A stretch of 4,142 bases of DNA from a virus (lineage: Duplodnaviria > Heunggongvirae > Uroviricota > Caudoviricetes): positions 1 to 4,142 of the IMG/VR virus record IMGVR_UViG_2663763280_000002; one strand, 5' to 3'. How positions within the stretch are numbered: the first letter of the stretch is position 1; each line of letters starts with the position of its first letter. The notes below the pieces were generated by a model, which saw nothing but the letters and a program-made list of their open reading frames with translations, had not been told where the DNA came from and made no database searches. Of this stretch, positions 1-4,142 are shown in pieces. The translations under genes and the position numbers were made by a program.

Positions 1-1
1 G

Positions 2-433
2 GCTGCCGGAGGCGCTCAACAGGATGACGTGCTGATGTACGTGATGCTGTGGCGCATTGATGCCGGAGATTATGCAGGGGCGCTGGAGATCGGGCGTCAT
101 GCCCTGCGTCATGGCTGGGTGATGCCGCTGGGTAACCGCAACGTGCAGACCGTGCTGGCAGAGGAAATGGCAGACGCGGCGCAGAGCGCAATGCTTGCCG
201 CCACCGGCTTTGATGCCGATCTGTTGCTGCAGACGCTGGAGCTGACAGACGGTCTGGATATGCCGGACCAGTCACGGGCGCGTCTGCATAAAGCGATTGG
301 CGCTGTCCTGAGTGAAAGCAACCCGGCTTCCGCCCTTAATCATCTCAACCATGCGTTACAGCTCGATCCTCGCTGTGGCGTGAAAAAAGACAAACAGCAG
401 CTGGAGCGCAGACTGCGCAATGACAGCCGCTGA
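2..433 (+). CDS. M: Terminase small (endonuclease) subunit, gpM-like, C-terminal part; 5' end lies outside the window
   Basis: The reading frame is open from the window edge with no in-frame stop before TGA 431-433. The first start codon in frame is GTG 29, but the frame continues upstream, so the gene is 5'-truncated by the window. Assignment rests mainly on synteny: it sits immediately upstream of the L-X-lysis-R block, as in the P2 late operon (N-M-L-X). No diagnostic motif was verified. Confidence 0.5.
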   Translation, partial: AAGGAQQDDVLMYVMLWRIDAGDYAGALEIGRHALRHGWVMPLGNRNVQTVLAEEMADAAQSAMLAATGFDADLLLQTLELTDGLDMPDQSRARLHKAIGAVLSESNPASALNHLNHALQLDPRCGVKKDKQQLERRLRNDSR

Positions 434-528
434 CAGAACGTGCCCCCGCGCACGGGCGGCACGGGGTGGCGAAAGGCACTGCCACATCAAAACCCCGTCC
501 ACCGCCCTCTATTTCAGGAGAAAGCAGC

Positions 529-993
529 ATGAAGTTTGTTGCGCCAGAACAGGCACCAGAACAGGCGGAAATCATCAGGAATACGCCGTTCTGGCCTGAT
601 GTGGACCTGTCGGAGTTTCGCAGCGTGATGCGCACTGACGGCACGGTGACGCAGCCGCGTTTAAAGCAGGTTGCGCTGTCGGCAATTTCGGAGGTCAACG
701 CAGAGCTGTATGAGTTTCGCAGACGCCAGCAGATGCTGGGGTATGCCTCGCTGGCAGAAGTTCCGGCGGAACAGCTGGACGGCAAAAGTGAGCGCATTCA
801 GCACTATTTCAACGCGGTTTACTGCTGGGCACGCGCCATGCTCAACGAACGATACCAGGACTATGACGCCACGGCGTCCGGTGTGAAGCGGGGCGAGGAA
901 CTGGCGGAAGCAAGCGGTGATTTGTGGCGTGACGCCCGCTGGGCCATCAGCCGGGTGCAGGATGCGCCGCACTGCACAGTGGAGCTTATCTGA
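529..993 (+). CDS. L: Head completion/stabilization protein, gpL-like
   Basis: ATG 529 is preceded by AGGAG at 516-520 (8-nt spacer). The GTG at 466 used by the ORF track lacks an RBS. Stop TGA 991-993 overlaps the next start by 1 nt (ATG 993). 154 aa. Position between M and X matches the P2 order. Confidence 0.7.
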   Translation: MKFVAPEQAPEQAEIIRNTPFWPDVDLSEFRSVMRTDGTVTQPRLKQVALSAISEVNAELYEFRRRQQMLGYASLAEVPAEQLDGKSERIQHYFNAVYCWARAMLNERYQDYDATASGVKRGEELAEASGDLWRDARWAISRVQDAPHCTVELI

Positions 994-1196
994 TGAAAGT
1001 GCGTGCGCATCAGTATGACACGGTGGACGCGCTTTGCTGGCGTCATTACGGGCGCACGCAGGGGGTCACGGAGCAGGTACTGAAGGCAAATCCGGGGCTT
1101 GCCGAATACGGCCCCTTTTTACCTCACGGGCTGCAGGTGGAGCTGCCGGACATTCCGACCACCACCACCGTGCAGACCGTCCAGCTATGGGACTGA
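993..1196 (+). CDS. X: Phage tail protein X, gpX-like
   Basis: 67 aa ORF with ATG 993 and TGA 1194-1196. Same length class as P2 gpX. The sequence pattern (YGRTQGV...VLKANPGLAE...LPHG..VELPD) matches my recollection of the tail X family. Translationally coupled to L. Confidence 0.75.
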   Translation: MKVRAHQYDTVDALCWRHYGRTQGVTEQVLKANPGLAEYGPFLPHGLQVELPDIPTTTTVQTVQLWD

Positions 1197-1199
1197 ATT

Positions 1200-1415
1200 A
1201 TGACGCTTGAGCGAATCAGCGCCTTTATCACGTATTGCATCGCCGTCGTGCTGGCCTGGCTGGGCGATTTGTCCATCAAGGATGCCTCAACGCTGGGCGG
1301 TCTGATGATTGGTGTACTGATGCTGGCTATCAACTGGTACTACAAACACAAATCCTACCTGCTTCTGCGCGACGGGCAGATCTCGCGGGAGGACTATGAA
1401 TCCATCAATCGTTAA
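1200..1415 (+). CDS. Small class II holin, possible pinholin
   Basis: 71 aa. Two predicted hydrophobic helices (approx. residues 6-22 ISAFITYCIAVVLAWLG and 31-49 TLGGLMIGVLMLAINWYY) followed by a charged C-terminal tail (KHKSYLLLRDGQISREDYESINR). ATG 1200 lies 3 nt after the X stop. The 3' end overlaps the endolysin start by 20 nt. It occupies the holin position of the P2 lysis cassette. Confidence 0.7.
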   Translation: MTLERISAFITYCIAVVLAWLGDLSIKDASTLGGLMIGVLMLAINWYYKHKSYLLLRDGQISREDYESINR

Positions 1416-1908
1416 ACGCTGCCTTGTCGGGGCCGTGCTGGCTATTGCTGCCACGCTGCCGGGTTTTCAGCAGCTTCACACCTCCGTGGAGGGGCTGAAA
1501 CTGATTGCTGATTACGAAGGCTGTCGTCTGCAGCCGTATCAGTGCAGCGCGGGTGTCTGGACCGACGGCATTGGTAATACATCGGGCGTCATTCCCGGCA
1601 AAACAATCACGGAACGACAGGCAGCAGAAGGGCTGATCTCCAACGTGCTGCGTGTGGAGCGGGTACTGGAAAGGTGTGTGAAGCAACTGCCACCACAGAA
1701 GGTGTATGACGCTACGGTGTCGTTTGCCTTCAACGTGGGGACGGGCAATGCCTGCAGCTCCACGCTGGTGAAATTGCTCAATCAGCGGCGCTGGGCGGAT
1801 GCGTGCCGACAGTTGCCGCGCTGGGTTTATGTAAAAGGTGTGTTTAATCAGGGGCTGGATAACCGCCGTGCGCGGGAGATGGCCTGGTGTTTACAGGGAG
1901 CAAACTGA
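1396..1908 (+). CDS. K: SAR-type endolysin, T4-lysozyme-like (GH24) muramidase
   Basis: ATG 1396 is preceded by GGGAGG (1387-1392). 170 aa. After K7-R8 the N-terminus has a weakly hydrophobic Gly/Ala-rich segment (CLVGAVLAIAATLPGF) typical of signal-arrest-release domains. The lysozyme catalytic region is DYEGCRLQPYQCSAGVWTDGIGNT (Glu41 ... Thr56). Cysteines at positions 9, 43 and 50 match the pattern of P1 Lyz-like SAR endolysins. Confidence 0.85.
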   Translation: MNPSIVKRCLVGAVLAIAATLPGFQQLHTSVEGLKLIADYEGCRLQPYQCSAGVWTDGIGNTSGVIPGKTITERQAAEGLISNVLRVERVLERCVKQLPPQKVYDATVSFAFNVGTGNACSSTLVKLLNQRRWADACRQLPRWVYVKGVFNQGLDNRRAREMAWCLQGAN

Positions 1909-1909
1909 A

Positions 1910-2287
1910 ATGAAAAAGAAATTAATCAGCGGACTGTTTCTGATGTTATGGATGGCGCTGTTAATCGCAGCAATGGTGTATCCGCAGGGGATTTTTCCGG
2001 TACTGGCAGCGTCCGGCGTTTGGGTAGCCTGTTTGCTGACATGGGCGGTAATTCCGGTAGCACTGGCTGCGTTAATTAAGAATGGCCCGCTCTGGCAGGA
2101 GTTAAGGGCATCTTTACTGAAGACAATTACCCGAAAAGAAAACGTATTTATCAGTTGGGTGATGCGATTGCTGATTGTTGTAAGTCTCGCCTGGACGGGG
2201 TGGGCTATTACCCTGGTCTTTTATCTACTGACCGTTATTGCCTTCTGGATCACCCGTAATCAGATGGCGCAACAGGTAGCAGCATGA
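1910..2287 (+). CDS. lysA: LysA-like integral membrane protein, lysis-timing accessory
   Basis: ATG 1910 is 1 nt after the endolysin stop (TGA 1906-1908), with GGGAG at 1896-1900 (9-nt spacer). 125 aa with about four predicted transmembrane helices. Located between the endolysin and LysB as in P2. The GTG at 1838 in the ORF track would overlap the endolysin by 70 nt and has no RBS. Confidence 0.6.
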   Translation: MKKKLISGLFLMLWMALLIAAMVYPQGIFPVLAASGVWVACLLTWAVIPVALAALIKNGPLWQELRASLLKTITRKENVFISWVMRLLIVVSLAWTGWAITLVFYLLTVIAFWITRNQMAQQVAA

Positions 2288-2712
2288 ACCGGTTGCTGCT
2301 GGTTGTGCTGGCGTTATTACTGGCGGCGCTGGGCTGGCAGACGTGGCGGCTGGCTGATGCCAGCCAGACCATTAGCACGCAGGCAGACGAGCTGCAGAGC
2401 AAAAGCCAGGCACTGGCAAAGAGCAACAGCCAGCTTATCAGCCTGTCCATTCTGACTGAAACCAATAACCGGGAGCAGGCGCGGCTCTATGCCGAAGCAG
2501 AACAGACCAGCGCGCTGCTGAGACAACGACAACACCGGATCGAGGAACTGAAACGTGAGAACGAGGATTTACGCCGCTGGACTGATACTCCTTTGCCTGC
2601 TGACATTATCCGGCTGCGGGAACGTCCGACGCTCACCGGAGGTGCAGCTTATCGTCAGTGGTTGTCCGCGAGTGACACCGTGTCGGCTGGATCAGGCAGA
2701 GCCGCGCACTAA
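2284..2712 (+). CDS. lysB: LysB, inner-membrane spanin (i-spanin, Rz-like)
   Basis: ATG 2284 overlaps the lysA stop (ATGA). N-terminal transmembrane helix (LLLVVLALLLAALGW) followed by a Q/A/E/R-rich, coiled-coil-like periplasmic region. 142 aa. Contains the out-of-frame start of the lipoprotein gene lysC. Confidence 0.7.
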   Translation: MNRLLLVVLALLLAALGWQTWRLADASQTISTQADELQSKSQALAKSNSQLISLSILTETNNREQARLYAEAEQTSALLRQRQHRIEELKRENEDLRRWTDTPLPADIIRLRERPTLTGGAAYRQWLSASDTVSAGSGRAAH

Positions 2713-2845
2713 CGGTGATCTGAACGCGTTGTTGGATGAAACGGAGGCCGCCTGGGCGGTCTGTGCAGACAAAGTGGACATGATTATTGCGTGTCAGGAG
2801 CAAAACAGTGAACAAACCACAATCCCTGCGCCACGCCCTCAATAA
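2555..2845 (+). CDS. lysC: LysC, outer-membrane lipoprotein spanin (o-spanin, Rz1-like)
   Basis: GTG 2555 with GAGGAA at 2541-2546. Signal peptide MRTRIYAAGLILLCLLTLSG followed by the lipobox Cys21 (L-S-G-C); the residue after the Cys is Gly, consistent with outer-membrane sorting. Pro-rich C-terminus (TTIPAPRPQ). It starts inside lysB in another frame and extends 133 nt past the lysB stop, which is the overlapped spanin architecture. Confidence 0.7.
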   Translation: MRTRIYAAGLILLCLLTLSGCGNVRRSPEVQLIVSGCPRVTPCRLDQAEPRTNGDLNALLDETEAAWAVCADKVDMIIACQEQNSEQTTIPAPRPQ

Positions 2846-3239
2846 AGCGGTGCCTTATGTCCGCAATAACCCGGACAAACTGCATCTGTTTGTGGATAAC
2901 GGTTCGCTGGTTGCCACGGGGGCCAGCTCCATGTCGTGGGAGTACCGTTACACCCTGAACGCGGTGATTGAGGATTTCAGCGGCGACCAGAATCTGCTGA
3001 TGGCCCCGGTTTTGCTGTGGCTGAGGGATAACCAGCCCGATGCCATCAATAACCCGGCGTTACGGGAAAAACTATTCACCTTTGAGGTGGATATTCTGCG
3101 CAACGATGTCTGTGATATCAGCCTGAACCTGCAACTGACGGAGCGTGTGCTGGTCAGCACTGACGGTAGTGTGTCGAGTGTTGAAGCTATAGCGGAACCT
3201 GATGAACCTGAAGAAATGTGGACGGTGAAACGTGGCTGA
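2808..3239 (+). CDS. R: Tail completion protein, gpR-like
   Basis: GTG 2808 with AGGAG at 2796-2800 (7-nt spacer); the TTG at 2787 used by the ORF track is less likely. 143 aa. The N-terminus ([10 protein letters not shown]...[14 protein letters not shown]) resembles P2 tail completion protein R as I recall it. Stop TGA 3237-3239. The last few codons lie at or near the junction with non-phage sequence, so the integrity of the C-terminus is uncertain. Confidence 0.7.
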
Positions 3240-3244
3240 ACTGC

Positions 3245-3511
3245 AGACTGATGCACTCACTGGCGGTCACTGAACAACGCGCCAGCTTCAAAGCGTGGAC
3301 ATTACTGCTGGCAATCAGTGCCTTCTCGTTGTGTCTGCTGGGGACTTTCCTGGTGCGTTCCGGCGTGCTGGTATCGGTACACGCGTTTGCCTCTGATCCG
3401 GCACGCGGTATGTTTATCCTCGCCTTTATGGTACTGGTGATTGGTGGTTCGCTGCTGCTGTTTGCCGCACGTGGACACAAAGTTCGCTCACGCGTAAACA
3501 ATGCGCTGTGG
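3245..3511 (+). pseudogene. ccmF: Internal fragment of a cytochrome c maturation heme lyase (CcmF/NrfE family); no start codon context and no native C-terminus
   Basis: Translation [88 protein letters not shown] matches my recollection of the CcmF/NrfE region just after the Trp-rich WWD domain, including a His that would be the conserved periplasmic His. About 90 of roughly 650 codons are present. The frame ends in KTGT-stop at 3524-3526, which I do not recognise as CcmF. Boundaries are approximate (about 15 nt). Confidence 0.6.
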
Positions 3512-3613
3512 AAAACGGGCACTTAGCGTGGCAAATTGCGCTACCGGGGCACAACGCTGACGCAGCGTAGCGAGCTGTCCTTCCAGTTTTTCCAGCAGCA
3601 GGGCGGTTTTCAC
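3512..3613 (-). pseudogene. priC: 5' fragment (about 34 codons) of a priC-like gene (primosomal replication protein N'')
   Basis: The minus strand reads GTG (3613-3611) then [34 protein letters not shown], preceded by GAGGT about 5 nt upstream and an AT-rich TATCAT-containing region. This resembles the N-terminus of enterobacterial PriC from memory. The frame then runs into the ccmF-like fragment and stops (PQRIVYA-stop). Identification is less certain than for the other fragments. Confidence 0.4.
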
Positions 3614-3897
3614 GATAAGACCTCAATGAAAATGATAATTGTTATGCTAAAGTAGCCACTCTGTAAGCTGACAACACTCAATATGCAACGAATCATTTTA
3701 ATCATCATGTTGAACTGGTACAGGCAACCAGCGGCACGCTGATGATTTTGCGCCATACCGCACCGCTAAGTTCGGCTGATCGCGAAAAACTGGAACGCTT
3801 TTCGCATTCTGAAGGCCTGGATCTGTATCTCGCCCCCGATAGTGAGATACTCGAAACCGTCTCTGGTGAGATGCCCTGGTATGACTCAAACGGGTTT
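3614..3897. other. AT-rich non-coding spacer between the divergent priC-like and rluD-like starts; origin unassigned, possible promoter sequences
   Basis: No recognisable coding signal; the ORFs here are short and unrecognised. Local AT-rich stretch around 3620-3720 (e.g. TATCAT about 25 nt upstream of the minus-strand GTG). This may contain native upstream regions of the flanking fragments, or a further unrecognised fragment. Confidence 0.3.
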
Positions 3898-4002
3898 ATG
3901 GCACAACGAGTACAGCTCACTGCAACGGTGTCCGAAAACCAACTCGGTCAACGCTTAGATCAGGCTTTGGCCGAAATGTTCCCGGATTATTCACGTTCGC
4001 GC
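3898..4002 (+). pseudogene. rluD: 5' fragment (35 codons) of rluD-like 23S rRNA pseudouridine synthase D
   Basis: ATG 3898 followed by [35 protein letters not shown], which matches the N-terminus (S4-like domain) of E. coli-type RluD as I recall it. After codon 35 the frame continues as [16 protein letters not shown]-stop (4051-4053), which is not RluD and corresponds to the antisense of the next fragment. Confidence 0.6.
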
Positions 4003-4142
4003 CAATCGTTCCCTGGCCAGCAATCACTTTCGGATCATCGTAAGGTGGGATAAAAATACGACCTTCCATTTCGACAATTTCGCTCACTTTAGCGATAGTG
4101 TCGTTGAAATTATCACCATGCAGAACGACTTCTGCGGAGTAG
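4003..4142 (-). pseudogene. tdcB: Internal fragment of a PLP-dependent threonine/serine dehydratase (TdcB-like), running off the window end
   Basis: The minus strand from 4141 downward translates to [47 protein letters not shown], which matches my recollection of catabolic threonine dehydratase TdcB (fold-type II PLP enzyme). Homology ends at about 4003, where the rluD-like sequence begins. About 46 codons are present. Confidence 0.6.

Follow-up and report, generated by a model that had tools for sequence, protein, structure and literature searches.

A priC start in a 4.1-kb mosaic contig: probable in-vitro joining of short Escherichia coli fragments to a P2-like prophage fragment

On one strand of a short contig dominated by prophage genes, a start of the E. 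coli gene priC is followed for 34 codons and then gives way to antisense sequence of ccmF. Does this arrangement record the truncation of priC in a living cell, with a new antisense transcript and a short aberrant peptide as its products, or did it arise elsewhere? The window analysed here is the whole of contig CCCB01000610.1 (4142 bp), which belongs to draft assembly GCA_000945835.1. The contig number (610) and the 4.1-kb size suggest that this draft assembly is very fragmented.

The priC start lies within a mosaic of unlinked blocks

The start itself is genuine E. coli sequence. A preliminary description of the locus had placed an intact translation start on the minus strand and ascribed it to priC, and both statements held. 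GAGGT (3624-3620) is separated by a 6-nt spacer, CTTATC (3619-3614), from GTG (3613-3611), and this GTG is the priC start annotated in E. coli ATCC 11775. The comparison of the N-terminal peptide with PriC, proposed as a check, gave a match, residues 1-34 being identical to reference PriC. Across window 3512-3708, furthermore, other E. coli records show 100% identity. The break after 34 codons, also described previously, was located exactly at 3511/3512, and the similarity of the antisense sequence beyond it to ccmF is far beyond chance (Table 1).

What found no support was the view of a resident priC gene whose body had been replaced. When compared with its parental loci by sensitive blastn, the window instead resolved completely into a P2-like prophage segment of 3247 bp and, behind it, five short blocks from E. 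coli core genes placed end to end, with five consecutive junctions within 900 bp (Table 1). The priC start is the content of one of these, a 197-bp block among five unlinked blocks, and the arrangement is on record in one contig. Identity to the normal E. coli locus is 99.5% or higher for every block. In strain 504838, ccmF, rlmD and tdcB are found at 4.71, 4.02 and 3.60 Mb, respectively, at least 0.4 Mb apart.

The priC piece is a fragment, not a gene. Its residues and start region are those of E. coli PriC (primosomal replication protein N''), but only 34 of the 175 residues are present. Against the PriC profile PF07445, the product of the open reading frame that contains it scored 15.7 bits, under the cut-off of 23.3, and aligned to profile positions 1-32 of 174, as compared with 173.7 bits for full reference PriC. 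The ccmF piece matched the Pfam families CcmF_C and Cytochrom_C_asm, likewise with scores under the curated cut-offs, which its shortness explains. The G+C content of the priC-ybaN block (0.457) is lower than that of its neighbours. Two single-base differences from the references were noted, one silent in priC codon 31 (window 3521, AGT for AGC) and one in ccmF (window 3469, relative to the reference strain used); both are ordinary strain variation and no mark of decay. An Rfam search of the window returned zero family matches, and a structured RNA reading was dropped.

The prophage part breaks off 16 nt into gene S. Gene names in Table 1 follow the annotation of the E. coli A28 record, a strain whose source is echidna faeces. 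The late-gene block from M' to R is intact, with one of 3247 bases differing from the A28 prophage. Of the 5426 complete E. coli genomes, 957 have a place that covers at least 80% of window 1-3320.

Table 1. Blocks, junctions and genes of the 4142-bp window
Feature	Position	Strand	Observation
P2-like prophage late-gene block	1-3247	+	3246/3247 identical to prophage of E. coli A28, single ungapped alignment
ccmF (cytochrome c heme lyase), internal 264-bp piece	3248-3511	+	263/264 identical to E. coli 504838
priC-ybaN start region, 197 bp	3512-3708		196/197 identical to E. coli ATCC 11775, without gaps
rlmD (23S rRNA m5U1939 methyltransferase), internal 192-bp piece	3705-3896	+	192/192 identical
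rluD, 105 bp, from 1 nt before the start codon to codon 34 plus 2 nt of codon 35	3897-4001	+	105/105 identical
tdcB (threonine/serine ammonia-lyase), internal, at least 141 bp, to contig end	4002-4142	-	141/141 identical
Junction 1, P2 gene S/ccmF	3247-3248		Blunt, 0 bp common to parents; AGA/CTG
Junction 2, ccmF/priC	3511-3512		Blunt, 0 bp common to parents; TGG/AAA
Junction 3, ybaN/rlmD	3705-3708		TCAT, 4 bp in both parents; alignments overlap by 4 bases
Junction 4, rlmD/rluD	3896-3897		Blunt, 0 bp common to parents; GTT/TAT
Junction 5, rluD/tdcB	4001-4002		Blunt, 0 bp common to parents; GCG/CCA
Gene M, partial (terminase endonuclease subunit)	1-433	+	A28 annotation
Gene L	529-993	+	A28 annotation
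Gene X	993-1196	+	A28 annotation
Holin	1200-1415	+	A28 annotation
Lysozyme	1396-1908	+	A28 annotation
LysA	1910-2287	+	A28 annotation
LysB	2284-2712	+	A28 annotation
LysC	2597-2845	+	A28 annotation
Tail gene R	2808-3239	+	A28 annotation
Gene S, first 16 nt only	3232-3247	+	A28 annotation
priC codons 1-34, from GTG 3613	3512-3613	-	Identical to annotated PriC residues 1-34
41-aa chimeric open reading frame	3488-3613	-	PriC 1-34, then PQRIVYA from antisense ccmF, stop
Native priC-ybaN intergenic region, 69 bp	3614-3682		Includes priC Shine-Dalgarno GAGGT
ybaN start codon and first 8 codons	3683-3708	+	MQRIILII, continuing out of frame into rlmD

Nature of the junctions and occurrence elsewhere

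Every junction was compared with both parental sequences. Microhomology across the five junctions amounted to 0, 0, 4, 0 and 0 bp in order. Random blunt joining is expected to give an apparent microhomology of 0 bp at 56% of joints; under this model at least four of five joints with 0 bp have a probability of 0.28, and at least one joint of 4 bp or more has a probability of 0.076. Near the junctions the parents show some imperfect similarity (ACTGC at junction 1, CTGT at junction 2), but no more than at random breakpoints within these loci (P = 0.30), and template switching through imperfect homology near the junctions was rejected on this ground. The junction pattern fits that given by homology-independent blunt joining.

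Other sources of the joints were considered and rejected. A restriction-ligation chimera of the 3C/Hi-C type would join at a common restriction site, and the five junction sequences differ and have none in common. A mobile element (IS, transposon, integron cassette or prophage att site) was rejected in view of the absence of terminal repeats, target duplications and recombination sites at the blocks; no direct or inverted repeats flank any of them, and the parental flanks have no common motif. The parental ccmF locus has three Chi sites (GCTGGTGG) in a stretch of about 400 bp, at locus positions 545, 591 and 921, and one of them is 16 nt upstream of the left end of the ccmF block (window 3248). 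The other block ends have no Chi and ccmF is Chi-dense, so that end points set by Chi-directed RecBCD activity were judged a matter of chance. An ATG occurs within the first 6 nt at three to four of nine block ends (3251, 3707 and 3898 on the plus strand, 3708 on the minus strand); as a signal at block starts this was set aside, being post hoc and near chance when all trinucleotides are allowed for.

The same blocks were then located in complete E. coli genomes. All 5426 carry them, each block at its own locus. Window 3200-4142 was spread over a median of five separate places per genome, the best single place in the 5426 genomes covering 29% of it, which corresponds to the ccmF block alone, and in none of the 5426 were two blocks adjacent. 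Plasmid and phage collections likewise yielded separate pieces only, without joined blocks. Probes of 26-30 nt across junctions 1, 2, 4 and 5, and of 29 nt across junction 3, were searched in contig collections. Junction 2 had no match in IMG/VR viral contigs, species-representative genome contigs or JGI metagenome contigs; junction 1 had none in species-representative genome contigs, junction 4 none in JGI metagenome contigs, and junctions 3 and 5 none in IMG/VR viral contigs. Finally, an exact-product look-up of the 41-aa open reading frame returned one contig from one sample, CCCB01000610.1 itself, in a protein cluster of one.

Origin of the mosaic

Beyond the observed block map, junctions and uniqueness of the mosaic, we infer an in-vitro origin and the step at which ligation took place. 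We consider it highly probable that the contig is a chimera in which short E. coli fragments were blunt-ligated in vitro onto a prophage fragment. Fragments of about 100-260 bp from an ordinary E. coli chromosome would have been joined end to end without homology, and the resulting chain would have become attached to the end of a larger P2-like prophage fragment. The joining step was most probably blunt-end ligation of fragment to fragment during library construction or during a ligation-based amplification, after which the concatemer would have passed into the fragmented draft. One 197-bp fragment would then simply have contained the priC start with its ribosome-binding site and the intergenic region towards ybaN, and the 'truncation' would be the end of that fragment. 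In the strain itself, on this view, priC, ccmF, ybaN, rlmD, rluD, tdcB and P2 gene S would all be intact at their normal loci.

Artefacts of this kind have been documented: template molecules can blunt-ligate to each other before adapter ligation and form concatemers (bioRxiv 10.1101/245241). The concatemers of Griffith et al. (bioRxiv 10.1101/245241) consist of unrelated fragments arranged head to tail with homology-free junctions, which matches the 0, 0, 4, 0, 0 bp observed here; theirs were found in PacBio amplicon libraries, whereas the chimera described here entered a deposited assembly. As expected of a blunt-ligation artefact, the junctions are free of homology and of specific sites, the fragments are unlinked, and the arrangement was absent from the other genomes and samples scanned. 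The main weakness of this explanation is coverage, as a concatemer of about 900 bp plus 3.2 kb of prophage has to be spanned by long reads or by several that overlap. Long-read or clone-based sequencing would provide this, as would amplification of the chimera before fragmentation; replication in a cell would serve too.

The contig could instead represent a real chromosomal structure, in which in-vivo end joining repaired a double-strand break in gene S of a resident P2-like prophage and took in several short stretches of the host's own degraded chromosome. The outcome would be a dead prophage followed by a patchwork in which the priC start occurs a second time, truncated. Each piece is a near-identical copy of E. 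coli DNA, and such accurate copies, possibly all from one genome, could equally have arisen in vivo. At one junction there are 4 bp of microhomology, and a contig running through five short duplicated segments needs consistent reads, which in-vivo replication supplies. We nevertheless regard this structure as unlikely: the junctions searched were unmatched in any other genome or contig of the collections scanned, and the templates lie hundreds of kb apart, a poor fit to local template switching. In yeast and in animal transgene arrays, non-homologous end joining is known to capture stray DNA at double-strand breaks. It likewise gives chains of short unrelated fragments with blunt joints or joints of 1-4 bp microhomology, but it depends on Ku or requires a comparable system, and E. 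coli is without one. To our knowledge, E. coli lacks Ku and LigD, and its LigA is poor at joining blunt ends. That a wild E. coli captured at least five pieces of its own chromosome, independently of homology and without Ku or LigD, at a break in a P2-like prophage is very unlikely. Were it true, transcription from the duplicated priC-ybaN start could extend in antisense into ccmF and the phage sequence, and if the structure were real in a cell it would point to an undescribed activity of blunt end joining and fragment capture in E. coli. One in-vivo pathway for RecA-independent joining of unrelated E. coli ends is A-EJ (Chayot et al. model, bioRxiv 10.1101/605246), which is described as dependent on RecBCD resection and LigA (bioRxiv 10.1101/605246). 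It uses microhomology of 1-9 nt in the Chayot model, while all events sequenced in bioRxiv 10.1101/605246 had 1-3 nt, and it produces mainly deletions. Here, in contrast, several fragments have been inserted, and microhomology, which A-EJ needs at every joint, is 0 bp at four of the five.

Under a purely computational misassembly, unrelated reads would have been chained by an assembler, scaffolder or gap-filler, with no chimeric molecule at any stage. The apparent fragmentation of the assembly would favour such an error, yet assemblers join through shared k-mers or overlaps, and here four junctions have 0 bp, one has 4 bp and none has repeats. Given this lack of overlaps and repeats, reads physically containing the junctions are needed, and we consider misassembly highly improbable. 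The same low weight falls on a chimera made by polymerase template switching during multiple displacement amplification or PCR, that is, without ligation. Amplification would give a single chimeric molecule enough coverage for assembly, and the 4-bp overlap at one junction is in keeping with it; the other four junctions have no overlap, however, near-junction similarity is at the level of chance, and the partners are unlinked. Template-switch chimeras from multiple displacement amplification typically have short junction overlaps and are mostly inverted joins of nearby sequence.

Expression signals and reading frames of the mosaic

The preliminary description had also reported a promoter-like sequence upstream of the priC start, and this found no support. 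A sigma-70 consensus scan gave zero minus-strand sites in 3200-4142, a result to be read in the knowledge that a weak or non-canonical promoter could escape a consensus scan. The best sigma-70-like match found by hand search on that strand agreed at 9 of 12 positions and had a non-optimal spacer of 19 nt (16-18 nt expected). Native DNA upstream of the GTG extends for just 95 nt (3614-3708).

As to the predicted antisense RNA and aberrant peptide of about 40 aa, the sequence does hold a 41-aa open reading frame and an antisense geometry: any transcript begun upstream of priC would cross the ccmF block in antisense and continue into phage genes S and R. The biology in the organism that had been attached to them is unsupported, and the molecule is likely a chimera; such a geometry is biologically meaningless if the molecule was never present in a cell. 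Since the most likely origin is a chimeric molecule or an assembly product, expression in the organism is moot. With an in-vitro chimera as the favoured origin, neither the 41-aa open reading frame nor the antisense transcript would exist in the cell. There is no evidence of a priC truncation in the organism, and the feature is most aptly treated as not biologically real.

The contig should serve as a quality-control flag, and not as evidence of pseudogenes of priC, ccmF, ybaN, rlmD, rluD or tdcB. Neither a truncated P2 prophage nor a new antisense RNA or micropeptide should be read from it. Gene calls derived from the chimera, such as those of 41 and 91 aa, are spurious entries in protein collections. 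The latter, the CcmF piece, is a public gene call on contig CCCB01000610.1; its cluster has 17 members and consists mostly of partial CcmF/NrfE fragments found on other short contigs.

Further reading frames cross the junctions, and for these, as for the 91-aa CcmF piece, the condition set on the antisense geometry holds too: they mean nothing biologically if the molecule was never in a cell. On the plus strand, a 103-aa open reading frame (3742-4053) fuses rlmD in frame with the rluD start (...WYDSNGF/MAQRVQL...) and ends in antisense tdcB; it had no Pfam match and was absent from the recorded called products. The chimera also makes a ybaN' open reading frame of 19 codons.
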